DNA of 32,000 bases. Source: Candidatus Saccharimonadota bacterium. GTDB lineage: Bacteria; Patescibacteriota; Gracilibacteria; BD1-5; UBA6164. The DNA is taken from assembly GCA_963677765.1 (NCBI GenBank), contig OY782392.1, forward strand, positions 300,001 through 332,000, written 5' to 3'. A program made the translations under genes and the position numbers. This document shows, piece by piece, positions 6,848 to 30,290 of the stretch (position 1 is its first letter; each line of letters opens with the position of its first letter). The notes under the pieces were generated by a model. It was given only the letters and a program-made list of their open reading frames with translations. It ran no database searches and was not told the DNA's origin.

Positions 6848-6905
6848 TGTTAAAAAAAGATTTAAAAAAAACTAGTTTTAAAAGGACTAGCATTTTTTAT
6901 GTTTA

Positions 6906-6990
6906 GCCGGGGTGATGGAATTGGTAGACATGTTGGTCTTAGAAACCAATGCTTAATCGCGTGCGAGTTCGAGTCTCGCCCTCGGCACCA
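6906..6990 (+). tRNA. tRNA-Leu (anticodon UAG), long variable arm
   Basis: Acceptor gccgggg/cctcggc (one G-U pair), anticodon stem ttggt/accaa with loop ctTAGaa, long variable arm, T loop ttcgagt, encoded CCA. Confidence 0.88.
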
Positions 6991-7052
6991 TACCAAATAT
7001 TTTTATATTTTTGTACCGTACTTGGCGGTCAAATAAAACAAACAAAAAGATT

Positions 7053-7307
7053 ATGAAAAAAGGAATACATCCAGAATCTAAAGAAGTTTTATTAGTAGAT
7101 AGAAGTGCTGATTCAGTTGTAAAAGTAAAAACTACAGCTAAAACTACTGATACTTATGAACATGAAGGTAAAGAATACCCTTGTATTTTTATAGAAACTT
7201 CTTCAGCATCTCACCCATTCTATACTGGTGAACAAAAAATCCTTAAAACTGGTGCAGTTGATAAATTCTACGCTAGAATGAAAAAATCAGAAGCATTGAA
7301 AAAATAA
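7053..7307 (+). CDS. rpmE: 50S ribosomal protein L31
   Basis: MKKGIHPESKEVLLVDRSADS...SSASHPFYTGEQKILKTGAVDKFYARMKK. The classic MKKGIHP start and HPFYTG motif are present. The track ORF from 7011 is an upstream over-extension. Confidence 0.9.
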   Translation: MKKGIHPESKEVLLVDRSADSVVKVKTTAKTTDTYEHEGKEYPCIFIETSSASHPFYTGEQKILKTGAVDKFYARMKKSEALKK

Positions 7308-7310
7308 AAA

Positions 7311-7346
7311 TAAACTCTACATTTTAAGTAGAGTTTATTTTTTTAA
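7311..7346 (+). terminator. rpmE intrinsic terminator
   Basis: Stem taaactctac / gtagagttta, 7-nt loop, T-run at 7338-7346. Confidence 0.75.
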
Positions 7347-7354
7347 AAAAAATA

Positions 7355-7381
7355 TTGACTTATATTTTTTTTATATATAAT
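7355..7381 (+). promoter_or_regulatory. Putative rplJL promoter
   Basis: TTGACT at 7355-7360 and TATAAT at 7376-7381. The spacer is only 15 nt, so the exact -10 is uncertain. Confidence 0.45.
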
Positions 7382-7384
7382 CAT

Positions 7385-7518
7385 AGTACTTTCTATGTCA
7401 AAGACAGTGGGCACAAAATAAGACCTACCGAGATAATAGAGGAATAGATTTTAAATTAGATATAAAGTTTAAAAAACTCTAATCCTTTTTCTTTGACTTA
7501 AAGAAAAAGGATTTTTTA
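7385..7518 (+). promoter_or_regulatory. rplJ 5' leader with terminator-like hairpin (L10-leader-type attenuator candidate)
   Basis: About 180-nt untranslated leader. It contains ...caaagacagtgggcacaaaataagacctaccgag... and a strong hairpin aatcctttttcttt / aagaaaaaggatt (7481-7513) followed by a T-run, ending about 45 nt before the rplJ ATG. Confidence 0.55.
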
Positions 7519-7560
7519 ATACTAGAAAGTAATAGTTTATATTGATAATAAAAAACAACA

Positions 7561-8133
7561 ATGGCTGTTTCAAAACAAAAAAAAGTTGAGATATTTAACG
7601 AATTAGTTGAAAAATTCAAATCTGCTGAATCAATTGGTTTTTCATCTACAAGTGCACTTAGTGTTGAAGATTTTGCAAAACTAAGAACTTCTTTAAGAGA
7701 AGTAGGATCTACTTATACTTTAGCTAAAAAAACTATTATAGTAAAAGCTATAAAAGAAGCTAGAGATATTGAAATTAACTTATCAGACTTAGAAGGTCAA
7801 ATCTGAGTAGTATGTTCTAATGAAGATGCTGTAGCTGGTTTAGGTAAAGTTAACGATTTCATGAAAGCTATAAATAAAGATGCTGATAAAATGGAATGGG
7901 CATTATCTATATTTGAAGGAGAATTAAAAGACAAAGAAGAAACAAAAATAATTGCTTCTATGCCTTCAAGAGAAACTTTACTTGGAAGATTGGTTGGTTC
8001 TATGAAATCTCCTATTTCTGGAATGGCAAGATTCTTTGATGCTGCTGCTAAAGAACTTGAAACTACTGGAAAAGCAAAAGTTAGTGAATTAGAAGGAAAA
8101 AAAGAAGAAACTTCTGAAGAAGAAGCTAAATAA
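7561..8133 (+). CDS. rplJ: 50S ribosomal protein L10
   Basis: The two track ORFs (7561-7806 and 7861-8133) are in the same frame and are joined through a single TGA=Gly at 7804-7806. The 190-aa product has an L10-like sequence and an acidic C-terminal tail. Confidence 0.9.
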
Positions 8134-8140
8134 TTGATAT

Positions 8141-8280
8141 TTGGTTCATTGATTCCCTATTTTTAGGGAGTCATTAACTAGTTATCAATAAAATAACTAG
8201 AATAGTTCATTGTAGAGCTTGATTCAGTGTCTGTTAAGAACTGAATCTAACGGATATTGAACTAAAATTCTACAATGAAA
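8141..8280 (+). other. Structured rplJ-rplL intergenic RNA element (three nested or adjacent hairpins)
   Basis: Hairpins are gattcccta/tagggagtc (8151-8172) and ctagttat/ataactag (8178-8200). A long-range stem ttcattgtaga/tctacaatgaa (8206-8216 with 8269-8279) encloses gattcagt/actgaatc (8221-8247). Confidence 0.5.
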
Positions 8281-8320
8281 TTTTAAAAAATTTTATTTTA
8301 TATTTTTAATTTTTGCAAAA

Positions 8321-8695
8321 ATGGCTGAATTAACAAAAAATGCACAACAAATTATGGACTTAGTTAAAGAATTAACTATAGTTGAATTAAATGACTTAGT
8401 TACTGCTATGGAAGAAGAATTTGGTGTTAGTGCTGCTGCTCCTGTTATGGTTGCTGGTGCTGGTGCTGAAGGTGGAGCTGATGAAAAATCAAGCTTTAAC
8501 GTTGAATTAACTTCTGCTGGTGCTTCTAAAATCGGTGTAATTAAAGTTATAAGAGAAATAACTGGATTAGGATTAAAAGAAGCTAAAGATATTGCTGATA
8601 ACGGTGGTATGATTAAAGAAGGAGCTTCTAAAGACGAAGCTGAAGAAATTAAAGCTAAATTAGAAGAAGCTGGTGCTTCTATCGAATTAAAATAA
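8321..8695 (+). CDS. rplL: 50S ribosomal protein L7/L12
   Basis: 124 aa: ...[23 protein letters not shown]...[27 protein letters not shown]...[14 protein letters not shown]. No TGA codons. Confidence 0.95.
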
Positions 8696-8702
8696 TTCTA
8701 TT

Positions 8703-8738
8703 AAAAAAAGATAAACTTATATAAGTTTATCTTTTTTT
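8703..8738 (+). terminator. rplL intrinsic terminator
   Basis: Perfect palindrome aaagataaactta-ta-taagtttatcttt followed by a T-run. Confidence 0.8.
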
Positions 8739-8862
8739 CTTTTAAATGTTTTTTCTTAACAAAAACTTAACAAAAACTATATTTTTTATAGCATAAAAAT
8801 TGACATAGACTAACATTTTTATAAAATGTTTGAGCTTATAATTATATAATAATTTGATACAT

Positions 8863-9285
8863 ATGAAATATTTATATTCACTAGTATTATTAGTATTCTT
8901 AGCTTCTTGTACAAATGGAGCATGAGTGACTAATGAAGAAACTGTAGATAATGAAAATACTTCTACAGAAGTAACAAACTCTGAAATTGATGAAGCTATG
9001 GAAGAAACTTTTTCAGAAGAAGAATCTAATGAAGGTCTAACTATGTTAGATGCTACATATACTAACCCTCAAGCAGAAATTGATATGAAAATTTACTATA
9101 GCTTAAACGAAGCTAATGAAATTGAAGAAATTTATGCTGAAGCTAGTAATTATGATATGAGTGCATTTAATGAAAATATCCAATATTTAGTAGGTAAAAC
9201 TATGGAAGAAGCAGAAAATGTTTATGTTTCTGGTAGTTCTCTTACTAGTGAAGCTTTCACAAGTGCTATAAAAAATAACATGTAA
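8863..9285 (+). CDS. Acidic lipoprotein with FMN_bind-like C-terminal domain (putative ApbE substrate)
   Basis: MKYLYSLVLLVFLASCTNGAG... has a signal peptide and lipobox LASC, and is joined through one TGA to the track ORF at 8926. The C-terminus ...IQYLVGKTMEEAENVYVSGSSLTSEAFTSAIKNNM resembles the end of FMN_bind domains (..VD.VSGAT.TS.A...A..). Confidence 0.6.
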
Positions 9286-9289
9286 TTAT

Positions 9290-10126
9290 ATGAAAAAATT
9301 TTCTAGAGAATTAATGTGATCAGTATTGAATATAACAATTTATGATAATAATATAGATTTAGAAATTATAGAAAATTGCTTTTTTGAGACTGAAAAATTT
9401 GAAAAAAAATACTCTAGATTTTTAGAAGATAGTTATTTAAGCTTGTTAAATAAGAATAAAAGTTCTCAAGAAATACCTTGAGAACTTTTATCTATTTTAA
9501 AGCTATCAAATAAAGTTTCACAAATTAGCAAATGATATTTTGATATTACTATACTTCCCTTTTTGGAAAATATCTGATATTGAATCAATAAAGAAGAAAT
9601 GAAGGAAGTATATTGATATAAAAATATAGTCATAAATGACAATACTATCAAGTTGGAAAATTGAGTATCAATAGATATTTGATCTGTATGAAAATGATAC
9701 ATTGTAGATAAAATATATAATATTCTTAATGAAAAATACAATGACTTTGTTATAGATTTTTGATGAGATATAAGAATAAAATGAAAACAAAAAATTTATT
9801 TAGAAGACCCCTTACAACTAAGTAAAAACATATGATATATTGAGTTAGAAAATAGCTCAATAGCATCATCATCTTCTAACAGAAGAAAAACAAAAAAATG
9901 ATGACATTTAATTAACCCCAAAAAAAATATAACAGATGATAAATTAGCAGTATATACTATGCATAAATTATCTAGTTTTTCTGATATATTATCAACTGCA
10001 TTATATGTTAGCCCTATAGAAGTTGCTTTAGATATAGTAAAAAAATCTAAATGACTTGAAGCTATGATTATAATGAAAAATTGAAAAATATATAAAACTA
10101 ATTGATTTAATATTAAAAATATTTAA
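9290..10126 (+). CDS. apbE: ApbE-family FAD:protein FMN transferase (no recognisable signal peptide)
   Basis: 278 aa with TGA=Gly: MKKFSRELMGSVLNITIY...SRFLEDSYLSLLN...SKGYFDITILPFLENIGYG...SIDIGSVGKGYIVDKI...VIDFGGDIRIKG...SSSSNRRKTKKGGHLINPKK...FSDILSTALYV. This matches the ApbE motif series. The start is 4 nt after the lipoprotein stop. Confidence 0.85.
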
Positions 10127-10128
10127 AA

Positions 10129-11631
10129 ATGATAAAAGAAGTAAAAGTAATTCCCTGATGTATTAGTTGTAGAAACTGTGAAAATGTTTGTCCTTCAGTT
10201 TTTAAAGTAAACCCAAAGTCAAAAGTAATTACTGATCAGTATGAATGAAAAGAATCAGAAATTTTACAAGCTGAAGCTATGTGTCCTGTTAATGTTATAA
10301 AAGTAAAACAAGCTGCTGGTTCAGTAAAAATTTCATTCAAAGATGCTACTTTAGTTGAAAAAAATTACCTAACACCAGATACTTTAGAATTAAAATTTAA
10401 TACTAAAAATTTTAAGTTTAAACCTGGTCAATATATTTCTTTACAAGGAAATGATTCTCTATGAAATTTTAGTCGTTCTTATTCAGTTGCAAAGTGAGAT
10501 GATAAGCATTTTACACTAAATATAAAACTTGAAAAAAAATGAAGAGGTTCTACTTTTCTTAAAAATTTAAAAATATGAAAGAGTATAAAATTTTTATGAG
10601 CTATATGAGCTTTTTACTTACAAAATAATAACAAACCAAAAGTATTAATAGCTACTTGAACATGATTAGCTCCTATGGTAGCAATGCTTGATAAAATTGA
10701 TAAAGATGTACAAAAAACTGTTATTTTTTGAGTGAGATATGAAAAAGATGTATATTATAAAGAATTACTTGAAAGTTATCCTAATACTAAAGTAATTATA
10801 AAAGTATCTAGACCAGAAGAGAAAACTATATATAGCAAGTGAAGAGTTACTGATGAAGTAAAAAATATATCAAAAGAATCTGAAGTATATATTTGTTGAA
10901 ATCCAGAAATGGTTGAGCATGTAAGAGAATGATTAGCTGAAAATTGACATGATGAAAAACTTATATTCAATGAAAGCTTTACTATATCTAGAAAATACCC
11001 TTGAAAATGCAAGGATATATTTTTAAATTGAAATATTCCTCATTTAAATAAATTATCTTGGGCAGTTATAATATTTTCTTTAACATTAATACCTTTTAGC
11101 TGGATTTATAATAAAATAAATAATAATCTATACTGAGACTTTTTATTCATAAACAACTATATGGGATTTATGTATGACCTTAGTTGGTGGTCAGTAGTAT
11201 TTGTAATGGCGATTAGACCTCTTGCAGACTTGTTTCCTAAAATTGGTATACTAAGTAAATTAGTTACTTTGAGAAAAGCTTTTTGAATACTATCTGCTTC
11301 AATTATTGTATCAAATTTTGTATGAAGTTCTGTATTTAATATAAATAAATTTTTAACTTATTTTACTATAGCTTGATGGGCTCTATATATGCCTTTGATA
11401 ACTAAATTAAGTGAAATATCTGCATTAATATTATTATTAACATCTAATAAATTATCTCAAAGAACTCTTTGAACTTATTGGAAAAAAATACAAAGATTAA
11501 GTTATATATACTTCATAACATGATGAATAATTGCTTGACTATACTTCCCTATGAAAGTATATCCTGTAATGGCTATAGTTATAATACTATGGTTTGCTGC
11601 TTTAATAAAATCATTAATAAAAAAAGACTAA
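10129..11631 (+). CDS. Fusion protein: ferredoxin (4Fe-4S) + FNR-type FAD/NAD(P)H oxidoreductase + C-terminal MsrQ/YedZ-like (ferric-reductase-type) membrane domain
   Basis: 500 aa, uninterrupted with TGA=Gly. N-terminus has PGCISCRNCENVCP...MCP. The FNR motifs are RSYS, GRGSTFL, IATGTGLAPM and YICGNPEMV. The C-terminal ~200 aa form about 6 TM helices containing AIRPLADL...LRKAFGILSAS and LTSNKLSQRTLGTYWKKIQRLSYIYF, similar to MsrQ. Confidence 0.8.
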
Positions 11632-11650
11632 TTAAAATTAGTCTTTTTTT
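11621..11650 (+). terminator. Intrinsic terminator of the redox module
   Basis: aaaaagacta-attaaaa-ttagtcttttttt. The stem includes the final codons K-D-stop. Confidence 0.75.
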
Positions 11651-11714
11651 ATTAATTTGAATTTAATAGCTAATTTTTTATAATGATATAAATATATAAT
11701 TAAATAATAAAATT

Positions 11715-12683
11715 ATGATTAATAAGCCAAATATTGTTATATCAAAATGTATTAATATAGACAATTGTAGATATAACGGAGATAGAGTTAATGATGATTT
11801 TTTAAACAAATTATGAAAACATGTTAATTTTATTGCTGTATGTCCTGAAGTTGCAATATGATTATGAACACCTAGAATGCCTGTAAAGCTATATTGAAAT
11901 CCTGATAGAAATATAGTAAAAATGTATCAAAGTAGCAAAAAAATTGACTTAACAGATAAAATGAATGATTTTTCTAATAAGTTTTTAAATAAATTAGAGA
12001 ATATAGACTGATTTGTAATGAAAAATAGATCTCCTAGTTGTTGAATAAAAGATGTAAAAGTATATCCTGACTGAGAATCTAAAATAGCTCATGGAAAATC
12101 TAGCTGATTATTTGTAAAAAATATAGAAAATATATTTGAAAATTATCCTTTAGAAGATGAGTGAAGATTAAAAAACTTTAGAATAAGAGAGTCTTTTCTT
12201 ACAAAAATATTTTGTTTAGCAAAATTAAGATGAGTTTTTGAATCATGAAAAATAAGTGAACTACAGAATTTTCAAGCTGAAAATAAATATTTATTTATGG
12301 CTTATTCACCAAAATATCAGGTAGAATTATGAAGAATAATAGCAAGTTATGATAAAACAAATTTTGAAGAAATAAAAAAATACTATCATGAAACTATATT
12401 AAAATTATTTAATAGTAAAAATGATACTTGAAAAATAATAAATGCCTTTACTCATATTTTTTGATATTTTAAAAACTCATGTTCAAAAGAAGAAAAAGAG
12501 TTTTTCCTAGAAACACTTGATCTATATAAAGAATCTAGAATACCAAGTAGTACAATAATAAATATATTAAATATATGGTCAATTAGAGATAAACAAGAAT
12601 ATATATTAAAACAAACAATTTTAAACCCCTACCCTAAAGACTTAATGGAATTAAGTGATAGTTGAAAACTATTAAAATTATAA
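11715..12683 (+). CDS. ybgA: YbgA-like protein (DUF523/TudS-like domain fused to DUF1722)
   Basis: 322 aa: MINKPNIVISKCINIDNCRYNGDRVND...FIAVCPEVAIGLGTPRMPVKL...NRSPSCGIKDVKVY... followed by a DUF1722-like helical half. E. coli ybgA lies upstream of phr, which fits this neighbourhood. Confidence 0.8.
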
Positions 12684-12705
12684 TTTATTTTTTTATTATA
12701 AGATT

Positions 12706-13122
12706 ATGGAAATTATAAAAATATTATGAGTATATTTCATATGATTTTTAACTTTATTAATACTAGATTATTTATGGTTATGAATAGTAACTAAAGATTT
12801 TATAATTAGAGAATTTTGAAGCCTTATAACAGTAGAAGAAAATTGAAGTATAAAGATAAATCTATTAGCTTGAATAATAGCTTGGTTAATAATATCTGCT
12901 ATGATAGTTACTTTTGTAACTCTAAAATACGATAATATATGAGATATTATATTATATTGAGCACTTTTAGGTTTTATGAGTTATGCTATGTATGACTTAA
13001 CAAATCTAACTTTTTTAAATAATTATTCATTAAAATTTACAATTGTAGATATAGCATGGTGAACATTTGTATGAACAATGATAGCTGTAAATAGTTTTTA
13101 CTTTTATAACTATATAAAATAA
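12706..13122 (+). CDS. DUF2177-family small membrane protein
   Basis: 138 aa with about 4 TM helices: MEIIKILGVYFIGFLTLLILDYLWLGIVTKDFIIREFG...YAMYDLTNLTFLNNYS. The family assignment is from memory of its typical sequence and of its co-occurrence with DUF1295 and photolyase genes. Confidence 0.6.
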
Positions 13123-13868
13123 TGGAAATATTAATTTTTATATTCATATTATATATTATATTATTTTTAATAAGTATAAAAATTAAAGATAACTCTATTT
13201 TAGATATATTTTGGTCATTATGATTCGTAATACAAGCTATTTATCTATATATAATAAATCAAGACTTTTCATTGATAAAAAATATAACAATTTTAATTAT
13301 ATTAATATGGTGAATTAGGCTTAGTTATTATATACTAAAAAGAAAGCTAAAGGATAAATCAGAAGATCCTAGATATGCTGAATGGAGAAAAAAATGGAAA
13401 TATTTTTATACTAGAAGCTTTTTTCAAGTTTTTATGTTACAAATATTGTTAATGTTTATTATTTCAACTCCTATATATATAATTTTTTCTTGAAAAGATA
13501 TAAACTTTTATGTTTTTATAATATGAATAACTATATCTATAATATGATTATTATTTGAAATAATATCAGATTCTCAAGTTAAAAAATACATAAAAGAAAA
13601 CTGAAAAAACAACAAAGTTTTTACTTGATGATTATATAAGTACTCTAGAAACCCTAATTACTTTTGAGAAAGTACTTTTTGGTTATGAATAGCTATAATA
13701 TCTAGTTCTATTAGCATATATGGTTTTATTTGATATATAGTAATAACTACTTTATTGCTATTTGTATCATGAGTACCAATGAAAGAAAAAAGGCAATCAA
13801 AAAAAGAAAACTGGAATCAATACAAAGAAAAAACAAGCGTATTTATACCTTGGTTCCCTAAAAAATAA
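13122..13868 (+). CDS. DUF1295 (steroid 5-alpha-reductase-like) membrane protein
   Basis: 248 aa. The ATG overlaps the previous TAA by 1 nt. Contains ...SEDPRYAEWRKKW...ISDSQVKKY...GGLYKYSRNPNYFGESTFWLG..., the NPNYFGE signature of the family. Confidence 0.75.
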
Positions 13869-14090
13869 AAATACCTAGTATATTTTAAATTTTATAAATA
13901 AGTAATAAAAAACGTTAATTTTTAAAACATTCCACTTCGTAAATAAAATATATAAATTTTCAAAAACTTGCCCAATCAAAGATTGGACTTCAAACAGTTT
14001 GAAAATTTATATATTTTATATTTACTTGTTACATTTAAAAATTAAATTTTTTTTATTATCTTATTTAAAAATTAAATACTAGGTATTTTT
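13866..14090. repeat. About 225-bp imperfect palindrome (long inverted repeat) between convergent genes
   Basis: The outer 15 nt, aaaaatacctagtat / atactaggtattttt, are perfectly complementary. An inner perfect 20-nt pair lies at 13945-13964 and 13998-14017. A central mini-hairpin is ccaatc-aaa-gattgg (13972-13986). The arms are about 105 nt and mostly complementary by hand alignment. Confidence 0.8.
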
Positions 14091-15548
14091 ATTTAAGAAA
14101 TTTTCTTTTAATTTTTTAACAGCTTCTATATCAATCTTTTCAAGATTTTTTACAACAAATGGTTGTCTAGTTTTTTTGAAAGTATCAATATTTTCAGATA
14201 CAAAAGACCAATACAAATAATTAAAAGGACAAGAATCACTTTCATACTTATTTTTAACATTATATTCACAATTTGTGCAAAAGTCTGACATTTTGTTAAT
14301 ATAATTTCAACTAGAAATATATGGTTTTGTAGCTAATCTTCATCAATCAGAAAATTGACTCATTCATAATACATTTGGTGAAACTACCCATTCAAAAGCA
14401 TCGCTATATTTTTCAAAGAACCACTTATTAATTTCTAAAGGGGTTACTCAAGTTAATAAGCAATAATTTCATATAACCATAAGTCTTTCTATATGATGTC
14501 AATAACTATTTTCTAAAACTCTTTTAATACTAGTTTTTAAACAATTCATTTTACAACTATCTAAATTTTTTCACCAAAAATATACTGGAAGAGTATTAGA
14601 ATTGTTAAAATAATTATTTTTATAAATATCATCTTTATAAAAATGAAAAAAATGATACATATATTCTCTCCATCAAATAACTTGTCTAATAAATCATTCT
14701 TTGTTATTTATTTCTGTATTTTGATTTTCTATTACAGAAACTACTTCTCTTGGTGACAATAATCAAAAATTTATAGCTGTAGATAAATTAGAATGATAAA
14801 CATAATCATCATTTTCATACATAGCATCCTCCAGTTTTCAAAAGTTTGGAAGATTATTTTTTACAAAATAATTCAATAAAATTATAGACTGTTCCCTATT
14901 TGTAGGATAACTTATAAATCAATCAAAATTATAAAATTTTTTTGCTTCTATTAATCATCTTGTTTCATCTAATATAAGTTGATTAACTGATTTGTGATTT
15001 TTATCAAATCATCTATTATCTTTATCATAATTCCATTTTCATCATATTGGATTATTTCAGTCCATTAAAATATCAAACTTTTTTCTCATATATCTATAAA
15101 AAGTCTCCATAACAGGAGGCTTTTTATATTTTGATAAAAACTCTTTATGACTTAAATAAAAACTTTGATTATCTTCTAAAAAAATTAAATCAATATTATT
15201 TGAAGTTAATTTATCTTTTATCTTTAAAAAATTTTCATAAACATAGTTTTCTACAGGTTTTATAACATAAACTTTTGAGAATCATCATTTATTACAAAAA
15301 TCTAAAATTTCATTGTAATAACTATTTGAGACCTTAAACTCTCATGAAAATCCTTTATTATTTAATTCTTCTATAAAATTATATCACATTGCATAATCAA
15401 ATATTTTTGATTTTATATTCAAACTTAAATTTTCATCATTAAATCTTATATTTCAATTATGATGAATATATAAAAAATACTTTGATAAACTTGTATCAAA
15501 ATAGTTTATATTTATTTGATTATATAATATTAAAAAAAAGCTCTTCAT
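14079..15548 (-). CDS. FeS-BCP type cryptochrome/photolyase ((6-4) photolyase PhrB/CryB-like, iron-sulfur cluster containing)
   Basis: 489 aa: ...GWREYMYHFF...SYGHHIERLMVIGNYCLL...[55 protein letters not shown].... The C-terminal Cys pattern and the PFN.LYW motif are typical of the Fe-S bacterial cryptochrome/photolyase group. TAG at 14079-14081. Confidence 0.85.
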
Positions 15549-15871
15549 TATTTTTTTATTAATTGATTTAATTTATTTTTAGCATCATCTAAATTAGATT
15601 CATAAACAATGATATCATCCTGTAAAATAATTCATTTATCATTATTTTTTAAAAATACTATATTATCCCATCATTTAAAATCACAAACCTTATACCATAT
15701 ATTTAAAAGATTTTCTCTATCTTTAGAGTCTATTTGTAAATATTTATTTTTTAAAGCTAAGTTATACTTTTCTCTTTCATAAGGTCTTAATCTATGTGAT
15801 ATACTTCTAGATCAAATATTAATTCAAGATTTTTTTCATCTAGTTAAATTATCAATATGTTCAAGTTTCAT
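15548..15871 (-). CDS. Hypothetical 107-aa protein translationally coupled to the FeS-BCP gene
   Basis: MKLEHIDNLTRGKKSGINIGSRSISHRLRPYEREKYNLALKNKYLQIDSKDRENLLNIWYKVCDFKGWDNIVFLKNNDKG...*. Its TAA overlaps the downstream ATG by 1 nt (TAATG). No family recognised. Confidence 0.55.
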
Positions 15872-16014
15872 AAAAACTATTTATTAACTAATATTAAAAA
15901 TATATTAAAAAAAAATAATATTTTTGCAAATATACTTAAATATATATAATCTGTATATAGGATTGAAGCCCCTTAGTACATTTAACTATTTTTAAAAAAG
16001 TTATTTGTAAATAA

Positions 16015-17502
16015 ATGAAAAAAGATATACAACTTATTTGGTTTAAAAAAAATCTAAGAATAAAAGACAACGAAGTATTTAATTATTTAGATAGAGATAC
16101 TGAAACAGTCTGATTTTATTTAATAGAAGATGAAATAGTAAGACAAAGAGATTTTTCATACTTTCATTTAAAATTTATTATTGAAAGTCTAATAAACTTA
16201 GAAAAAAATTTAAAAAAACTAAATATAAAACTAATTATAAAAAAATCTAATTTTGAGGATTTTATAATAAATATAGAAAAAGAGTTCAATATAAAAATAA
16301 TAGTTTCAACTCAAGAAACTTGAAATATAGCATCATATAACAGAGATTTAAGAGTTATTAATTTTCTAAAAAATGAATCTATTGATTTTTTAGAAGTGGA
16401 AAATAATTGAGTAGTTAGATGATTAAAAAATAGAGATAACTGGACAAAAATTTGGAATAAAAGAATGTGAAGTGATATTTTTTTAGAAAAGAAATTTAAA
16501 AAATTTAATAATTTTGAGAAAGAGCTAATTCAATCTAAAATAATTCTAGAAAAATATAAAGAAAAAACAAAGCATTTAAAAACTCAAGAATGATGAGAAG
16601 ATAATGCAGTAAAAATTCTAGATAGTTTTTTAGATAATAGGTGTAAAAATTATTCCTATAACATATGAAAACCTTATGAATCAGAACACAGTTGCTCTAG
16701 ATTATCACCATATATAACATATTGAAATATATCAATAAAGTATATTTATCAAAAATCCATAAAAAAAATATTAGAATTAAAGACTGATTTAGATGAAAAT
16801 AATCTCAAAAAAATCAAACAAATAAACTTTTTTTTAGCTAGAATTCATTGGCAATCTCACTTTATCCAAAAACTTGAGTCTCAAGTAGATATTGAGTATA
16901 AAAATTTGAATAAAGAATTTGATAAAATTAGAAATAAATCTGATATAGAAATAATAAATAATTTTTTTAATGCAAAAACTGGTATACCATATTGTGATGC
17001 CGCAATTAAATGTTTAAAAACAACTTGATGGATAAATTTTAGAACAAGAGCATGTTTAGTAAGCTATATATGTAATACAATGATGCAACCATGGCAATCT
17101 ATTTGAAAAAGACTTGCATGCTTATTTACAGATTATGAACCATGAATTCATTATTCACAGTTACAAATGCAATCCTGAACTACAGGAATAAATACCATAA
17201 GAATTTATAATCCAATAAAACAGTCAAAAGAAAAAGATCCTCAATGAAAATTTATAAAAAAATGGATACCAGAATTAAAAGAAATTGATATAAAATATAT
17301 ACATGAACCATGGCTTAGTGATAAAAAAATTGAATGATATAGTAATAAAATTGATATAGAAGAGTTAAACAAAAAAGCAAAAGAAGTATTATGGTCTACA
17401 AAAAAAGAAATAACTAAAGATAAAAAAAATAAAATAATAAAAAAGCATGCTAGTAGAAAAAAAATAAATAATAAAAACAAAAAGCAACTAACAATTTTTT
17501 AA
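16015..17502 (+). CDS. Cryptochrome/photolyase-family protein, divergent subfamily, with lysine-rich C-terminal tail
   Basis: 495 aa: MKKDIQLIWFKKNLRIKDNEVF...SRLSPYITYGNIS...FLARIHWQSHFIQKLE...GIPYCDAAIKCLKTTGWINFRTRACLVSY...[38 protein letters not shown]. The tail is KKEITKDKKNKIIKKHASRKKINNKNKKQ. Confidence 0.8.
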
Positions 17503-17504
17503 AT

Positions 17505-17645
17505 ATGAAAATTTATGAAAGATGACAGTACAAAGAGGCAAAGCTATGCCCTATTTGTAAAAAATATTTTAGTATAAGAAAAAAATGGAAAAATAGTTTT
17601 GAACAAGTAATTTATTGTAGTGATAAATGTAGAAAAAATAAATAA
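17505..17645 (+). CDS. DUF2256 small zinc-ribbon-like protein
   Basis: 46 aa: MKIYERGQYKEAKLCPICKKYFSIRKKWKNSFEQVIYCSDKCRKNK. It has the CxxC...RKKW...YCSxxCR pattern of the DUF2256 proteins that commonly flank photolyase genes. The start is 2 nt after the previous stop. Confidence 0.7.
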
Positions 17646-17731
17646 TTGATATTAGAACTAAAAAAAATATACTATAATTAGTAGACGGATAAAGCTCTCG
17701 CCAATTTGTTTTATCCTATAAAAATAAAAAC

Positions 17732-19051
17732 ATGTACAAAAAATCTATTTTTTGGTTTAGACAAGATTTAAGAACATATGATAATGTTTGACTTTATAAT
17801 GCTGTAAAAAATTCAGAAAAATTATTAGTTATATTTATACTAGATAAAAATATAATAAATGATTTTTTATGATTAAACGATAAAAAATTCTGATTTATAA
17901 GAGAAGCTTTGGAAAGATTGGATTCTGAGATAAAAAGTTTATGATGAGAATGATTAAAAGTTTTTTATGATAAACCTGAAACCTTAATTCCTGAACTAAC
18001 TAAAAAATACAATATAAATGCAGTATTTACTAACAGATCATACTGAAATTATTGAAAAAAAAGAGATGAAAGCATTAAAAATACTTTATCTAAAAGTAAT
18101 ATTGAATTTTTAAGTTATAAGGATTACTTACTAGTAGAACCATGGGAAATAGAACAAAGAAAGGTATTTACACCATTTTATAAACTATGGCAAAAGATAG
18201 ATTTTGATACTAATGAGTACAAAATAACTGATAAAATAGACTCAATAAAAATAGAAGAAAATAATAAGGCAAAAGATTATATTTCTATAGAAAAACATCC
18301 TTATTTTACAATGGATTTTTGAGAAAAAAGACTGGAAAAATACATTACAACTGATTATGATTTATATAGAAATGACTTAGATAAAGACTGAACATCAAAA
18401 CTATCACCATATCTTAGATTTTGAATATTTTCTGTAAGACAAATATATAATTTAGCAAAAAATATTAACCAACATTTTGTTTCAGAAATGGCTTGGAGAG
18501 AATTTTGGCAACATATTGATTACTATTTCCCTGAAACTAAAAAAATAGAATTTCAAGAAAATAAAAGACATATAAAATGGAGACATGATGAATACTTATT
18601 TGAAAAATGGTGTAATTGAGAAACTTGATATCCTGTTGTTGATGCTGCAATGAAACAATTAGTAGAAACCAATTGGATGCACTGAAGAGCTCGTATGATA
18701 GTTTCTAGTTTTCTAACAAAAGATTTACTTATAGATTGGAGATGGTGAGAAAAGTTTTTTAAAAAACATTTACTAGATTATGATGAAAATGTAAATTATT
18801 GAAACTGGCAATGGTGAGCATCTGTATGAGCTGATCCAAAGCCATTACGTATATTTAATCCTATACTTCAATCACAAAAATTTGATAGCCAAGCTAAGTT
18901 TATAAAAAAATATATACCTGAACTAATAAACCAAAATACAAAAGCTATCCATGACCCAATAGATAATGAATTAGATTATACTAGAATAATAGTTAATCAT
19001 AAAGAGGCTCAAAGAGAAACTAGATTAGTTTATAAATGAGAAAAAGACTAA
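17732..19051 (+). CDS. phr: Deoxyribodipyrimidine photolyase (class I-like or Cry-DASH-like CPF member)
   Basis: 439 aa: MYKKSIFWFRQDLRTYDNVGLYNA...TSKLSPYLRFGIFSVRQ...MAWREFWQHI...[37 protein letters not shown]...[31 protein letters not shown]. Confidence 0.88.
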
Positions 19052-19125: not shown

Positions 19126-20697
19126 GTGTTCCAAATAAAAACAATAAATATTCAAAACTTTAGAAGCATAGATTTTCAAACAATAAATTTTTGAAAAAAT
19201 AAAACAGTTCTAGTATGAAAAAACAGCAGTTGAAAAACTGTGATTTTAAAAGCAATTGAAAAGTTATTAAATTCAAAAAAAATAAAAAGAAAAGATTTTT
19301 TAAACAAAAACAAAAAATTAATAATAGAAGCTATTATAGTAAACAAAGGTAAAGAAGTTTCTATAAAAATAGAATCTATATTTAATGAAGAAAAGCAAGA
19401 AGCAAATACAAAAAAAATAAATTTCAACAACGAAATTGAAAAAATAATAGAAAAAATAAATGTTATATATATACCTAGTGACAGAAAAATAAACAAAGAC
19501 AATAAGGAGAATTGATATATGAAACTTATTGACCTAATATTAAAAAACAAAGAAATAAATCAAAAAAAATCAATATATACTAAAAAAGAAGTAAAAAAAC
19601 TAAACAAAAAATCTTGAAGAAAGAAAACAACTCTATTAATAACTCTTTTAAGACTATATTTATATAGTATAAATAATAAAAATAACAAAGATTTTACAGT
19701 TTTTATTATTGATCAACCTGAAAACTTTTTGCATCCACATGCAACAAAAATGATTGATTCTATACTACAACAAATATGAGAATTAGAAAATACACAAATA
19801 TTTTACTGTACTCATTCACCTGAACTAGTTTCAAATTTTAGAAAATGAAAATATGAAATTTCTGATATATTATTCGTAAAAAATGAATGAGGGATAACTA
19901 AAACTCAAAAAATTGATAACAGATATTGAAGATTTAATAAAATAATGATAAATTTAATTTTTAAAAATGCTTCTATATTTTTCTCTGATGCTGTTATACT
20001 AGTAGAATGAGAAACTGAAAAGATATCTATACCAAATATATATGAAAATATAAACTGGAATAATTATTCTAAAATAAATAAAAAAAATATATCAAAAGAA
20101 GAAAAAATTAATTACTTTAACTTGAATCATAAAAATATTAGTGTTATTGATGTTTGATGAAAATGAGCACTATATGAGTGGTATGTTTTTGCTTGTGAGT
20201 TATTTTGAAGAGAAAATGTTATAGCATTAATAGACAGAGATGAAAATTTCTATATAGATCGTGATATGATTATAAAATCTATTAGAAAAATATATAAAAC
20301 ATGACCTATTTTTGAAAATGATTTCAAAAAATATAATTGGATAGTCTTAAATTGAGAATTTGAAAACTATTATAAAATTGATTCTATAAAAACATATATT
20401 ACAGAAGTTATTACTTCTAGAGCTGAAAAATTTTGAGAAGATTTCGATCAAGAAAAATTTGATTTAAGTTTAGATAAATTAGATTCAAGATTAAAAAAAT
20501 TAAAACAATCAAAGAAAATATCTAGTGAATATGAAAGGTTATTTAATTCATATTTTAGAAAATATTCAAAACCTACTATAGCATTTAATTTATCAACATG
20601 GTTAGCACAAAATAATTGATATGATGAAGAATTATTAAAAATATTTGCAAATATGATTGAAAAATTTGATAAAAATGAATCTAAAAATAAAAAATAA
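19126..20697 (+). CDS. OLD-family ATP-dependent endonuclease (ABC-type ATPase + Toprim), stand-alone
   Basis: About 523 aa: (V/M)FQIKTINIQNFRSI...LVGKNSSGKT (P-loop), FIIDQPENFLHP (Walker B-like), YCTHSPELV, then Toprim AVILVEGETEKISIP (20002-20019) and ALIDRDEN. The start is uncertain between GTG 19126, which gives the canonical N-terminus, and ATG 19084. Confidence 0.75.
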
Positions 20698-24992: not shown

Positions 24993-27900
24993 TTATTTAT
25001 TGTCATCTTCTGTCTTTAACCAGTCTGGTATCTTCATTCAATCATCCCATAACTCTGTTGAGTCTTGAGTTTTTTTAGTTTTAGAATCAGAAGTTTTATC
25101 TTCTTTTTTTACAGACTTTTTAGTTGTTTCTTTAGATGAAGTAGTAGATTTATTATTAGACTTAGTCTTGTCATCTTTTTCTGATTTTTCTTCTTTTTTA
25201 TCAGTAGAATTATCATCAATTGATTTATCTAAATCTTTATTATCTTTTTTATCAGATTTTTCATCTGACTTTTCAATACTTCATTTTAACCAATCTGGTA
25301 TATTATCTTCTGAAGTATCTTCTTCTTCGTCTAAATCTATTTTAGTAAGATTATCTAAATCTTCTTTTGTATCCATTTTCGGTAAAGATTCTTCTTTTTT
25401 AATAGAATCAGATTTATTATTAATAGAATCTTTTTTATCTAAATCAGAATCAGAGTTAGAATTTATTTCTTCTTTAGATTTAGAAGATCACACTTTTGTT
25501 AAATCTTTTTTATCTAAAAGGTTTTTAGATTCTTCTTTTTTATCAATTTTTATATCCTGCTTTTTAGGATTTTTTTCTTTAACAATTTCTTTTTCTGATT
25601 CTTTACTCTCAACACCTTCATCTTCATCAAAACTTCCCTTTAACCAATCTGGTATTTGGGATTTAGTTTCAGTTGAAGTAGTATTAGTAGCAGCTTTATC
25701 TAAATTAGGTTTATATGTTTCTACTTTTGTATTATCAATTTTTTTAGATTGTTCTTTATCATTATTTAAAGATATTTTTGTATCATTTTTATTATTAGAA
25801 CTATCTAGTGGTTTATTGATAACTGGATCACTTATTTTATTTTCTTTAAGATTATTTTCCTTAGGTTTAGTATCAAAACTATCATCAAATCATCATTTTA
25901 ACCAATCTGGAACATCTCAAGAATTAGTATTTTTAATATTATCCTTTGTTTCTATATTATCATCTTTTTTGTCTTGTTTATCAGTTCAAGTTAGAGGATC
26001 TTTTATATCATTATTTGATACATTTTCTTTTGGTTTATCATCATAAGAAAACGGATCAATAAATTCATCTTTTGTAGATTCATTATTAGGTGATACTTCT
26101 CATGATAAAGGATCAATATTATCTGATTTTTTTTCTTTTATAGTATCATCTCAAAGAATATCTCATAAATCAGAAATATCGTCTTTTACAGTTGAATTTC
26201 AACTAGATTTTCATCAAGTTTTTTCTGAAACAAATTCTGAAAAAGACTTATTTTTATCTTTATTAACAAGTTTATAATAAATAAAGAACAATACAATTAC
26301 AAATGTAAATAATAATATTATATAAAATATAATTTTTAATATAAACAATATTGCATCAATAACTCATGATCAACCTGTAGTTCAACCGATAACTTCATCA
26401 TTTTTAGCAACCTCTTCTTTTTCTTGTTCAGGTATATTATTAACACCTCAATATACAAATGTATTTAATATTGCCTTGAAATCATTTTTTTCTTTTACAG
26501 ACATATTTGGATCTTCAGCAACATTTCTAAGAATTTGTTTTCATAAAACTACATTTTCTTCTACATTATCATTTTCTGATATAACTTCTAATTTTGCAAC
26601 CAATAATTGATAACAAGTAACATTTTCTCACTCAACTTCTAATGATTCTTCTTCGATACAAGCTATATTAGTTGGTAACATGTTTTTTAATGCAGTTAAA
26701 GCTATTGCTTTTTCTGTTCTATCTGCTTCACCATCAACTAATAATCATTCTAATATATCTATTATTTCTGCAGAAGAAGATAATCATGACTCATCTAAAT
26801 AAGTAGAAAATTCTAAAATAACATTAGTTTTTTCTCTATTATCATTCCATGCTTCTTTTAATCTTTGAACATACATTAATCATTTTAATTTATGTTCTTT
26901 AGGAAAAGAATCTACTTTATTTTTAATTTTTTCTAATTGTAATTTTACTGAATCAGAAACTCATTCAAAAACTATAGAACTTGAATCAATCATTTCATCT
27001 TCCTCAATATATTCTTTTAATATAATTATATCTCTAGAATTTATAACTTTTCAAGATGAATCTTTAGTAAATATTCTTAATTTTTGTTCTCTAAATTCAT
27101 TTAATTCAATTTTTAAAGGATTTCATGAAAAGTAACTATTATCATTCTTGTTATCTTCATCATCATCATTTCATCAATTCAAATCACTATCAATTTCAAT
27201 ATCATAATCTACAACATAATTTTCTGCTTTATCATCAAATGCAAAATATAAGAAAACATTATCAATTTCATCTTTTAAAGTAATAATATTATCTTCTATT
27301 TCATTATTTGAAATAACTGGAAAATCTTGTTTTCTAATATTTATTATATTAGCTACATTTTTTGTAACTTTTTTTGTTATATCTCTTATTTTAGTTCATT
27401 CAGTTAATTTTAATTTAACTAAATGTACATTTTTTGCATCTTCATATGTATAAACAAAAGATCCGTTAGTAGTAATTTTATTTCAATCTCACATATCCCA
27501 TTCATACTCAGCTCAAACTCATAAACTTTTATCAAAGAATATATAAGTATTACCATAAGAGTAATAATCAAAATCTGGCTTTAGTATATTTGATACATTT
27601 ACAGTAACTGTTTTAGTGTTTGAGAATCATTTATTTGATACTTTTACTTTTGCTCTTTTTTCTCAAGAACTATTATAAGTATAAGTAGTTACATTACTTG
27701 TTGTTTCTTTATCATAAAATCAATCCCCATCAAAATCCCAAGAAAATTTTACTTTATTATTTAAATTTTGTCCTAATATATTCTCTGCATTTGCTGAAAA
27801 AGTAACTTCATCACCTATTCAAACAGATGAATTATTTACAACTAAATCTAATAAAGGTGTATTTACATTATCTCATGTAAGAGTGATAAAGTATTTTGAA

Positions 27901-30290
27901 CCTGTTATCTCTTCTGAAATAGATCTTTCTTCATTGTTGTCTTTCATTACTACAACAAAATAGTAATTTCAAGTAATTTTAGGTAAAACAAATGAAGTAG
28001 AATCAGTTTTAGTAGCTCTAAAATCTTGAGGCTCAGGGTCAACATCAGTATAGTAATACCATAAATAAGATTGTATTACACCATCTCTATCTTGAGCTCA
28101 AAGAGCACTAATATTAACAATTACTGGATCAGTTTCAGTGTCTTTTACTCTTACATCTAATCATGATAAAGTAGGTTTAATATTTTCAACTTTTATATTT
28201 ATTGTTTTTGAGTCTTCTCTTCAGTTTTTATCACTTTTTACAACTAATTTTAATTGTTCACAACCTAATTCATCAAATTTTTTATTAAAAGATTGAGAAC
28301 TATAAATAGAACGTCATAAAGTCCAAGAATATGATAATCATGAATTTTGTCATGTAATATCTAAACTTTCTTCTCAAGAAAATGTAAAATTATCTACCCT
28401 GTTAACTAAATATGCTCATTGTCATCCACATGCTCTTGGATCAAATGCAACTTCATTTCATTTAGGATCTTTCAAAGTTATATATGCATAAGGAGAGTCA
28501 GTATCTCAAATATATACATTTCTAGTTAAAGTATTTTCATTATCATTACTATCAATAACTTTTAATTTAACTCAATATACTCATGATTTTTTAAATACAT
28601 GAGAAATAGTTCAATTACTTCAACCTTCTTTTATTCAATCTCCAAAATCCCATTCATAAAATTTTGCCTCTGGAGAATCCGCAATAAATCTTATAGTCTT
28701 ATCTCTTTGCGATACTCTAGGAAAAATATTAAAATCAACGGATAAAATTGATCTAATATCTACCTTAGTATTTTTTTGGTTAACTATTCCTTCAGGATCA
28801 GTTACTTCTAATGTAACAGAATGTTCTCATATAGAATCAAAAGTATAATATCAATTAGAACCATTATAATTAGGTCTATCTAGATTTACTCTGTTTCAAT
28901 CAATTACCCAACTAAACTCTAATTTTCAATCATCAGAATAATCAGGATCATAAGATGAAGATCAATCTAAAAATACTGTATTAGGTCTATGAGAATCTGT
29001 AATACTATGGCTAAATTCAGCTACTGGAGCTCTAGAGTTTATATATATAATTTTTGTATCTATATCTACCTCTCCTGAAGGTTCAGTAACATATAGCATA
29101 ACATTATATATTCATTTTTCTGTGAAAGAATAATTAAAAGTAGAAGAAGATTTATTTAATATTTCTTCATCATTTTTTATATCAATTATTCTCCATGAAT
29201 AAGTTAAATATTCATTTCTAGAAGTAGGATTAGCAGTAAAAGTAAAAGTATCTCACATATATCCTTCATCAGAACTAGCTTTTATAGTAGCTATAGGATT
29301 ACTAACTATTAAATCAAATTCCCTTTTTACAGTTTTTCATTCATTAGTTCTAAGTTCTAGAGTTACATCAAATTCTCACTCATTAGCATATACAACTCTT
29401 TCAACTTTTGGAGCTCAATCATATGTTCTTTCAACTCAATTACCAAAATCCCAACTAGTTCTTGTAAATTTAGTTCAAGATGTAGGAGTAGAACTTGTTG
29501 CATCAAATAATAATCAATATTTTGCTTCTTCTGGTGAAAATTTTAATTCATCTCTATTTCATAGATTATCAGAATTAACTTTTACTATAACGGATGCTAC
29601 TTTTTCCTTTACAGAAACTGTAACTCTTGAAGAAAATGGTAAAACATCAGTGAATCATTGAGAATTTTTATGATTAGATGTTACATCTAAAAATACAGAA
29701 TAATTTCATTCTTCATTAAAAGTATAATTGATAGAAGACCTATTTCACAATACTTTTCTTTTTCATCAATCATTAATCCACCAAGTATAATTATAGTTTT
29801 CTAATTTTGTTCAAGTAGGATCTTCAACATTTCATCTAAGAGTAACTGTTAAAGGAGCATTTCAAGTAGAAGGAAATGATTCTATATTACCTCTGATTTT
29901 TTGTATATTAACTTTGTTTAAATAGTCCTCTATTGAACTAGATATAGTTTGAAATTGAGAAGAGTTTTCAGGATATTTTAATCCTCTTTCTATAGAACTT
30001 TTTAAAGAATTATAGTAATTTTTATTAATCAAATTATCAGGAAGATAATTAAGTCAATTTTTTGCTAACTCTAAAATCCTTGCTGAAACAACCGAGTCTA
30101 TAACTCAGTTTACTTCAAATTTATTTTTTAAATCAATATATTGATCAGTTATTCTATATCTATATTCGTTAAACGTATTTAGATCAGAAGGAGTAATTGT
30201 CGTATACTCAGTATCAGCAGCACTAACATAAGTTGGTGCTATAGCAGATATAATCAATATAAATAATGTAGTTAGTACTTTTTTAAACAT
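24993..30290 (-). CDS. Giant (1765-aa) secreted multi-PKD-domain protein with C-terminal TM anchor and K/D/E/S-rich tail bearing four PDWLK motifs
   Basis: I checked every codon of the frame from 30290 to 24993 and found no TAA or TAG. Signal peptide MFKKVLTTLFILIISAIAPTYVSA/AD. About 8-9 repeats of roughly 90 aa carry PKD signatures (APLTVTL, TSWDFGNG, YEWDFGDG, FSWDFDGDG, YEWDMGDG). These are followed by an acidic helical region, a TM helix (about 26270-26365) and a tail of about 430 aa. Confidence 0.85.

Follow-up and report, generated by a model that had tools for sequence, protein, structure and literature searches.

The closest described relative of the locus reported here is the 'MsrQ-like' flavinylation-associated system, which was defined bioinformatically by Meheust et al. 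(2021, eLife; PMC8238504; see also Huang et al., 2024, mSystems; PMC11334425). The association of apbE with genes for an FMN_bind protein, an MsrQ-like membrane protein and an NAD-binding module is, as a kind of system, already known from comparative genomics. The census behind this definition required signal peptides and defined MsrQ-like proteins by PF01794, and Patescibacteria were reported to be strikingly under-represented for extracytosolic flavinylation (PMC8238504). We analyzed a window of 32,000 nt from a gracilibacterial member of the Patescibacteriota (positions 300,001–332,000 of contig OY782392.1, assembly GCA_963677765.1; all coordinates below are those of the window) that contains, at 8,863–11,631, three genes for a lipoprotein, an ApbE-family protein and a fusion of a ferredoxin, an FNR-type reductase and a membrane domain. 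Patescibacteria (the candidate phyla radiation, CPR) are generally regarded as heme-less fermenters without membrane electron transport, and the sequence of this locus suggests an unusual movement of electrons at the membrane of such supposedly purely fermentative bacteria.

The reading that we favor, and to which we give somewhat short of an even chance, is that the operon is a heme-independent and Patescibacteria-specific form of the MsrQ-like system, in which electron transfer at the membrane depends on NAD(P)H and is associated with flavinylation. Cytoplasmic NAD(P)H would reduce the flavin adenine dinucleotide (FAD) of the FNR module; the [4Fe-4S] ferredoxin domain at the N-terminus would then hand the electrons singly to the six-helix membrane domain, from where they would go on to flavin mononucleotide (FMN) on the lipid-anchored FMN_bind lipoprotein outside and, finally, to an extracytoplasmic acceptor. 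The covalent FMN would be supplied by ApbE, most likely on Ser126 of the lipoprotein and, because ApbE is leaderless, it would have to be added to the lipoprotein precursor before Sec export; within the membrane domain, flavin(s) at conserved polar sites are the replacement for heme that we favor. The membrane protein would receive electrons from NAD(P)H because it is constantly associated with one- and two-electron redox modules of the cytoplasm (FNR, ferredoxin or rubredoxin), and the extracytoplasmic FMN would be the exit point in the clade of the window because the operon there is strictly linked to a lipoprotein whose flavinylation-type Ser is invariant. A path from NAD(P)H to the cell surface had already been put forward in the first-pass annotation of this DNA; the general idea is reasonable, although our analysis found no cofactors for its transmembrane leg.

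As defined (a PF01794 gene clustered with a signal-peptide ApbE or FMN_bind gene), the MsrQ-like system does not include this locus, which is analogous to it in composition but in which PF01794 is not called and only the lipoprotein has a signal peptide. Since the published flavinylation censuses filtered on signal peptides and PF01794, they probably missed this system, and the reported scarcity of flavinylation in the CPR may be partly a detection artefact. Our literature search did not turn up any paper that connects ApbE with Patescibacteria or Gracilibacteria.

Genetic Code and Operon Structure

Calling open reading frames (ORFs) with the standard bacterial code (table 11) broke the region 8,863–11,631 into short ORFs; reading UGA as sense produced long ORFs across the whole window (1–32,000), which has a G+C content of ca. 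22%. Because in-frame UGA codons sit on the conserved Gly positions of the motifs GRGSTFL, ATGTGLAPM and CGNPEM of the fusion protein, the sequence indicates that the host uses code 25 (UGA = Gly), as do Gracilibacteria and Absconditabacteria. The lipoprotein gene has one UGA codon (codon 21), apbE has 19 and the fusion gene has 25. These sites are often translated as Trp in public protein sets, and two such entries, P0093 (a lipoprotein 99% identical to that of the window) and P0006, differ from the code-25 translation only there.

With this code the three genes, all on the forward strand, occupy 8,863–9,285 (lipoprotein, 140 aa), 9,290–10,126 (apbE, 278 aa) and 10,129–11,631 (fusion gene, 500 aa), which are exactly the coordinates proposed previously. 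The module is bounded upstream by a terminator hairpin 3′ of rplL, followed by a T-run (8,703–8,738; −14 kcal/mol, z = −5.76), and downstream by another over the stop codon of the fusion gene, also followed by a T-run (11,618–11,651; −13.5 kcal/mol, z = −6.77). Both hairpins are AT-rich, and for neither of them was any of 200 shuffled sequences as stable. As the intergenic gaps are only 4 and 2 nt and the flanking hairpins are strong, the three genes form one operon. A promoter-like site, TTGACA-16 nt-TAAAAT (8,800–8,827, forward strand), matches 11 of 12 consensus positions and is the best such site in 6,900–14,200; the DNA is very AT-rich, and the match is one of consensus only. The boundaries described in the first-pass annotation, namely the rplL terminator and a TTGACA region upstream and a strong terminator downstream, were recovered in this way (z < −5.7 for both hairpins), and so were all the protein motifs that it listed: LASC, VYVSGSSLTSEAF, CxxCxxCxxxCP, RSYS, GRGSTFL, ATGTGLAPM and CGNPEM.

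The Lipoprotein and Its Putative Flavinylation Site

The acidic product of the first gene opens with a signal peptide with the lipobox MKYLYSLVLLVFLASC (L-A-S-C, with Cys16; 8,863–8,910), from which an acidic linker of low complexity leads to a C-terminal domain of ~65 residues. Residues 76–138 (9,088–9,276) align to positions 7–74 of the 77 of the FMN_bind profile (PF04205) with 13.8 bits and E = 0.093, the cutoff being 22 bits; the equivalent region of a close family member carrying SGAS (P0269) reaches 27.8 bits, above this cutoff. A profile made from eight close homologs retrieved 200 cluster representatives at E ≤ 0.001 from 1.8 billion proteins, and reached canonical proteins with multiple FMN_bind domains (P0333, with seven; P0352, with six; and P0346, with three) at library-wide E-values of 2e-9 to 3e-7. 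We read about 150 of the representatives: most have the same lipobox, and most of those also have a C-terminal [S/A/T]-G-[S/G/A]-S-L motif. Cys16, Gly124 and Ser126 are the sole invariant residues in 52 close family members.

According to a 2025 review of ApbE, the flavinylation motif is D-x-x-[S/T]-G-A-[S/T], which tolerates the loss of its Asp with little effect and admits Ser as the acceptor (PMC12052999). The corresponding sequence in the window is V-Y-V-S-G-S-S, ending in S123-G124-S125-S126 (9,229–9,240), where the Gly and the putative acceptor Ser are kept, and some members of the family have the canonical SGAS. Because the D-x-x-SGAT sites of canonical FMN_bind proteins align with this SGSS site, and because P0269 passes the FMN_bind threshold, Ser126 appears to occupy the FMN attachment position of canonical proteins and is the putative acceptor. 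The lipoprotein had been described as FMN_bind-like, with this sequence at the place where FMN_bind domains carry the flavinylation motif; the profile that links its family to canonical FMN_bind proteins and the alignment of their sites bear this out, although its own Pfam score remains below threshold, and from these comparisons it belongs to an FMN_bind subfamily that has diverged. A translational fusion or frameshift joining the lipoprotein to ApbE was also considered and rejected, since the reading frames of the two genes differ and the distance between them ranges from −58 to +11 nt among loci.

A Leaderless ApbE

The product of the second gene matches PF02424 with 142.6 bits (cutoff 25.6; E = 2.2e-41), from residues 9 to 260 on profile positions 1–266, and the solved structure 7esa with E = 1.4e-17. 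Inspection of the alignment showed that its segments FGGDIRIKG, GGHLINP and SDILSTA correspond to the GGD, catalytic His and D-x-x-S-T-A motifs of solved FMN transferases. The protein is a member of the ApbE family, as had been concluded before, retains these hallmarks and is a predicted FAD:protein FMN transferase.

We found neither a signal peptide nor a lipobox in this ApbE, with only eight residues preceding the catalytic domain and no hydrophobic stretch among them, and an in-frame stop six codons 5′ of the start makes an upstream extension impossible. In a survey of the N-termini of ApbE genes adjoining homologous membrane-protein genes, ca. 65 of 68 loci were also leaderless, starting 0–5 residues before the domain ("MKEYEY..MGT") and with low hydrophobicity. 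The lack of a signal peptide, both here and in these related loci, argues that this ApbE is cytoplasmic and one of a clade of cytoplasmic ApbEs, and places it with the minority of the family that works in the cytosol, the typical ApbE being extracytosolic. The first-pass annotation had overlooked this feature, as well as the lack of heme-ligand His in the membrane domain of the fusion protein. The apbE coding region also contains, at 9,455–9,492, a perfect inverted repeat of 15–17 bp, ATAAAAGTTCTCAAG...CTTGAGAACTTTTAT, which was flagged on both strands by the terminator scan.

The Fusion Protein

A ferredoxin domain of the Fer4_13 family spans residues 11–59 of the fusion protein (10,159–10,305; E = 2.7e-10, 41.2 bits, cutoff 24.5). 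C11, C14, C17 and C52 are invariant in 42/42 fusion homologs, and C21 is Cys in only 34/42, from which the fourth ligand would be C52 and not C21 and the domain would hold a single [4Fe-4S] cluster. The CxxCxxCxxxCP ferredoxin noted previously is consequently present, although the last Cys of its motif is the one that is not always kept. It is followed by FAD_binding_6 (residues 73–163; E = 3.3e-10) and NAD_binding_1 (residues 173–266; E = 4.5e-18), which together (10,345–10,926) constitute the complete FNR module that had been proposed, with its RxYS, GxxS/T, GTGxAP and CG motifs, with R116, Y118, S119, T176, T178, P182 and C256 invariant, and with fold matches to cytochrome b5 reductase, NqrF, BenC and the reductase domains of flavohemoglobins (E ~1e-14 to 1e-17). 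Full-length homologs of ~500 aa make up more than 100 clusters, from Gracilibacteria, Peregrinibacteria and other Patescibacteria, and their annotation goes no further than "ferredoxin" or "FAD-binding oxidoreductase."

The membrane domain (residues 306–499; 11,044–11,625) had no Pfam match in the window protein. In a model with a pLDDT of 86, made from a 92%-identical homolog (P0102) that may read UGA as Trp at recoded sites, it forms six helices (306–330, 344–368, 382–403, 421–438, 457–472 and 474–499), with helix pLDDT values mostly of 81–93; the fold search with this full-length model was swamped by the FNR module and returned no match for the membrane domain. The same family occurs across Patescibacteria as stand-alone proteins of ~200 aa, labeled "YedYZ heme-binding subunit" by JGI, and 4 of 24 members match PF01794, the best of them with 22.3 bits over profile positions 4–118 of 121. 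The six-helix MsrQ/YedZ-like domain of the first-pass annotation stands as regards the helices and a distant similarity, but the PF01794 scores are sub-threshold and the heme-ligand His are missing; we regard it as a probable distant relative of MsrQ/Ferric_reduct.

The canonical heme-ligand positions in transmembrane helices (TM) 3 and 5 are non-His throughout the membrane family; these His were the most conserved residues of MsrQ-like proteins in a 2024 study of flavinylation-associated cytochromes (PMC11334425). Lacking conserved His, the domain is predicted to be unable to bind heme in the canonical manner. Among 73 family members there are two partly conserved His columns (27/73 and 48/73), at the outer ends of TM2 and TM4, where the window protein has Trp and Lys (~W352 and K426) and the code-25 clade never has His, showing W/K or W/R instead. 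A His/His pair occupies these columns in 24 of 34 code-11 members with a separate FNR; it lies off the canonical TM3/TM5 heme positions and could ligate heme or a metal in code-11 lineages. We noted that the presence of the lipoprotein coincides with the loss of this outer pair, and did not use it as evidence, since it is fully confounded with the phylogeny of the code-25 clade. Conserved polar residues form two clusters, one at the cytoplasmic face (R363-P364, R382, S389, T438-S439-N440, Q444, K452, Q455, Y459 and Y461) and another from mid-membrane to the outer leaflet (W353, R/K426, S428, E429, T431 and W417), which are possible sites for non-heme cofactors.

Conservation of the Module Among Patescibacteria

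A scan of one genome per GTDB species found 80 loci, almost all from Patescibacteria, which were examined with hidden Markov models (HMMs) built for this analysis; apbE is directly upstream of the membrane-protein gene in 67 of the 79 informative loci. In genomes with code 25, the order lipoprotein–ApbE–membrane protein was found in 13 loci, eight with the Fer4-FNR fusion and five with a stand-alone membrane protein. Every code-25 locus that has ApbE and enough sequence upstream also has the lipoprotein (13/13), one further code-25 locus being cut by the contig edge. A search seeded from lipoprotein homologs recovered the trio in an unrelated neighborhood, as well as a second locus with genes for the lipoprotein, ApbE, a 203-aa protein without Pfam match and a thioredoxin (compare L002, below), where the 203-aa product is probably, by its position and size, the stand-alone membrane protein. 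The first-pass annotation had treated the trio as a conserved unit, and the recurrence of this order in the 13 code-25 loci and in an unrelated neighborhood argues that it is inherited as such, with an ApbE–membrane protein core that appears to be conserved across the phylum. The operons of code-11 genomes are usually ApbE–MsrQ-like–FNR (41 loci) or ApbE–MsrQ-like (12 loci), both without an FMN_bind gene, which means that 53 of the 60 code-11 loci that are informative keep the core.

The membrane domain is fused to a ferredoxin alone in P0004, and the related proteins P0208 and P0209 combine a true PF01794 domain with rubredoxin and NAD_binding_1, in parallel to the Fer4-FNR-membrane fusion. 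A gene for a 56-aa rubredoxin is divergently oriented upstream of the operon in five loci (L038, L042, L048, L071 and L080). In two code-25 loci without FNR, a gene for a cytoplasmic-type thioredoxin lies directly after that of the stand-alone membrane protein (L002, 6,685–6,984, with WCGPC; L086, 6,003–6,299).

Upstream of ApbE–MsrQ-like–FNR we observed a divergent gene for a presumed OmpR-type response regulator of 222–230 aa (L022, L023, L029, L050, L064, L065, L067, L068, L070, L074, L076–L078, L081 and L082), and the majority of these loci have, beyond it, a gene of ~340 aa for what we take to be a histidine kinase. This arrangement suggests that the ApbE–MsrQ-like–FNR operon is environmentally regulated. 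Besides, apbE from code-11 genomes is often preceded by a gene for a protein of 111–184 aa that begins with a membrane or signal segment and continues through a low-complexity linker to a conserved, very basic C-terminus, the gene being located directly upstream of apbE (L025, L026, L034, L036, L046 and L073) or divergently (L001, L035, L037, L055, L072, L075 and L060). The protein ends in ...S-R-R-T-R-A-S or ...S-K-K-S-K-A-S, and the [S/T]-[R/K]-A-S so formed loosely resembles [S/T]-G-A-[S/T]; a naturally occurring 'flavin tag' at the C-terminus is one possibility for this tail, and an unrelated role is another. A locus from Candidatus Campbellbacteria (L066; CAMZKW010000015.1) contains eight in-frame TGA codons inside the HMM-matched ApbE, membrane-protein and FNR regions, which could reflect recoding, pseudogenization or mis-binning, in a lineage not known for recoding.

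Electron Path and Alternative Explanations

Several results weigh against the outward electron path that we favor. A leaderless ApbE would stay in the cytoplasm, separated by the membrane from the exported, mature lipoprotein, and flavinylation before Sec export is without precedent; in Salmonella, a cytosolic ApbE did not complement an apbE knockout (PMC12052999). Flavinylation of the surface lipoprotein by the adjacent ApbE, as assumed in the first-pass annotation, is unsupported as written, because it would need this non-standard step. Modification before export is chemically conceivable, since ApbE labels unstructured terminal tags of seven residues (PMC12052999). The lipoprotein itself scores under the FMN_bind threshold, its motif lacks the Asp and has Ser in place of the conserved Ala, and its AlphaFold model is poor (pLDDT 53), with three strands, helices, the motif loop and a C-terminal helix in this order. 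This order seems compatible with what we take to be the FMN_bind fold. A fold search with this poor model gave no significant match, and its insignificant IscU-type matches were discarded.

The membrane leg of the path faces similar objections. The best score of the membrane family, 22.3 bits, is below the PF01794 threshold of 28 bits; the alignment with Escherichia coli MsrQ is weak and local (hhalign probability of 20–33%, with three collinear motifs) and sets His151 of MsrQ against an invariant Gln; and no column of the membrane domain has His in more than 5 of 42 fusion proteins. Profile searches of the PDB with the lipoprotein family and with the membrane family returned chance or signal-peptide matches only, and we found no candidate cofactor for an electron crossing of ~30 Å of bilayer. 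Pfam scans revealed no gene for an acceptor enzyme in the cluster, and no MsrP, molybdoenzyme or iron transporter gene among the window genes. Lastly, most code-11 operons lack an FMN_bind gene and five code-25 loci have the fusion without ApbE or lipoprotein nearby, and the conserved partner of ApbE may be the membrane protein or the FNR instead of the lipoprotein.

The main rival explanation, a real contender if an unlikely one, is a system that faces inward. Here the leaderless ApbE would flavinylate a site exposed to the cytoplasm, on the MsrQ-like protein (in analogy with the covalent FMN on the membrane subunits NqrB and RnfD) or on a cytosolic protein, and the membrane domain would hold a flavin in a pocket at its cytoplasmic face, the whole acting as an NAD(P)H oxidoreductase of the inner leaflet or cytoplasm, e.g., in oxidative-stress defense; the lipoprotein would be a clade-specific add-on, whose flavin is non-covalent or otherwise served. 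Both the absence of a leader in ApbE and the FMN_bind-free core of the code-11 loci agree with this explanation, as do the location at the cytoplasmic face of nearly all the invariant polar membrane residues (R, R, S, T-S-N, K, Q and Y), the annotation of E. coli MsrQ as a flavocytochrome and the rubredoxin and thioredoxin genes adjoining some loci; moreover, cytosolic ApbEs that modify cytosolic targets are known (PMC12052999). Nevertheless, a search of the separate FNR proteins found no [S/T]-G-A-[S/T]-like motif, and none is evident in the conserved columns of the membrane family, where the conserved T-S-N is common to the heme-binding E. coli MsrQ and so is not specific to flavinylation. 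The second polar cluster, from mid-membrane to the outer leaflet, suggests a role beyond the inner face, and in the code-25 clade the lipoprotein, with its invariant acceptor-like Ser, is strictly linked to ApbE (13/13).

It is improbable that the operon serves flavin acquisition or trafficking, with the surface lipoprotein capturing external flavin, the membrane protein importing it and a cytoplasmic ApbE/Ftp-like enzyme processing FAD or FMN. Small-genome symbionts rely on cofactor salvage, and the lipoprotein resembles a tethered binding protein. FAD pyrophosphatase activity has been reported for some ApbE/Ftp enzymes (PMC4767422). Against this, import would leave the obligatory ferredoxin/FNR partners of the membrane protein unexplained, the membrane fold is that of an electron-transfer superfamily and of no transporter family, and the invariant acceptor Ser is a mark of covalent attachment and not of transient binding.

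Quite improbable is a canonical heme-dependent MsrQ-like system that uses scavenged heme b, bound by non-His or lineage-specific ligands, to feed an MsrP-like or ferric-reductase function. The six helices and the collinear MsrQ motifs would fit such a system, together with the JGI label of the relatives and the outer His/His pair frequent in their code-11 representatives; but the clade of the window has W/K or W/R in place of this pair and no other conserved His, the canonical ligand positions are devoid of His in the entire family, and the window offers none of the MsrP, molybdoenzyme or iron transporter genes looked for. To our knowledge, CPR genomes typically lack heme biosynthesis as well. 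Incidental adjacency of three unrelated genes, to be expected at times where tight spacing is general, as in such compact genomes, and compatible with the five code-25 loci holding the fusion alone, is effectively refuted by the synteny counts, that is, by the same order in 13 code-25 loci and a different neighborhood and by the pairing of ApbE with the membrane protein in many classes of Patescibacteria.

A broader version of the outward path is doubtful, and we advance it as a speculation: a conduit common to the Patescibacteria lineage, in which the six-helix MsrQ/NOX scaffold would carry flavin(s) in place of hemes, and the cytoplasmic ApbE would install FMN from inside, its target being either the membrane protein or the precursor of the lipoprotein, with no need of a FAD exporter. 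In Gracilibacteria and Absconditabacteria it would be completed by the surface FMN lipoprotein, yielding an NAD(P)H-driven extracellular reductase. If functional, the system would give the CPR a conserved and dedicated route by which the reducing power of NAD(P)H would reach the membrane and, probably, the surface of the cell, with a bearing on the redox chemistry of episymbionts beyond fermentation, e.g., in oxidant defense, iron reduction or redox interaction with the host. It would also contain the first membrane domain of the MsrQ/NOX superfamily to operate without heme, and would be an exception to the rule of a common compartment for ApbE and its target.

Gene Neighborhood

Directly downstream of the operon (11,715–19,051) there is a run of genes of photodamage type, coding for TudS (2-thiouracil desulfurase) plus DUF1722, DUF2177, DUF1295 and three photolyase-family proteins. 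The latter are a DPRP photolyase-related protein (14,079–15,548, minus strand) and two photolyases/cryptochromes (16,015–17,502 and 17,732–19,051). DUF2177 and DUF1295 are also found 3′ of the module in two other loci (L004 and L006), and we take these downstream families to be members of the singlet-oxygen regulon of proteobacteria. The neighboring genes, i.e., the photolyases in the window and the thioredoxin, rubredoxin and two-component system in relatives, hint at a defense against (photo-)oxidative stress rather than at respiration or energy conservation.

Further along, a gene at 19,126–20,697 encodes an OLD-family nuclease-like protein (AAA_15/AAA_21 ATPase plus OLD-like TOPRIM), a typical component of defense systems. 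A giant protein of 1,765 aa is encoded at 24,993–30,290 (minus strand); it is secreted or membrane-anchored, with many modules of ~90 aa in repeat and, besides a C-terminal transmembrane segment, a long, charged tail in which the motif 'IPDWLKG' recurs, and may be a surface adhesin of the episymbiont.

Comparison with Known Systems

Like the MsrQ-like system, the operon associates apbE and an FMN_bind protein with a six-helix MsrQ-type protein linked to an NAD(P)-binding module of FNR type, and the path proposed is also the same, from NAD(P)H through the membrane protein to an extracytosolic flavinylated protein. Four departures are new here: a sub-threshold membrane domain free of conserved His, a leaderless ApbE, an N-terminal reductase preceded by a [4Fe-4S] ferredoxin, and a diverged lipoprotein with SGSS; the host is, in addition, a Patescibacterium with code 25. 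The membrane protein shares with E. coli MsrQ (YedZ), which works with Fre, and with the NOX/FRD reductases the six helices, the motifs xPLA, RR/RK-x-x-G and TSxxxxQRxLGxxW, and an FNR-type flavin reductase as donor; whereas E. coli MsrQ is a heme b flavocytochrome that serves periplasmic MsrP, here there are neither heme ligands nor an MsrP gene.

The FmnB/PplA locus of Listeria monocytogenes likewise encodes together an ApbE-type transferase and a flavinylated (here putatively so) FMN_bind surface lipoprotein. The Listeria system uses Ndh2, quinone, EetA/EetB, the extracellular lipoprotein FmnB and a FAD exporter, none of which occurs here, where ApbE would be cytoplasmic. In this last respect the closest parallel is the ApbE of Klebsiella pneumoniae that matures NADH:fumarate reductase, which is also cytoplasmic and without signal peptide; its target is, however, a soluble cytoplasmic enzyme with its own FMN_bind domain, whereas the only FMN_bind protein of this operon is an exported lipoprotein.

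The Na+-NQR and RNF complexes differ in their membrane subunits, since the membrane domain studied here has no homology to NqrB/D/E or RnfD/A/E, and also in that the ferredoxin is here of the 4Fe-4S and not of the 2Fe-2S type and that there is no sign of ion pumping. With them the operon would share, nonetheless, the entry of electrons through a ferredoxin-plus-FNR unit, as in NqrF, which was also matched in the fold search, and the use of an extracytosolic FMN_bind subunit flavinylated by ApbE (NqrC/RnfG), and their heme-free path through flavin and Fe centers provides a functional precedent for the one proposed here.

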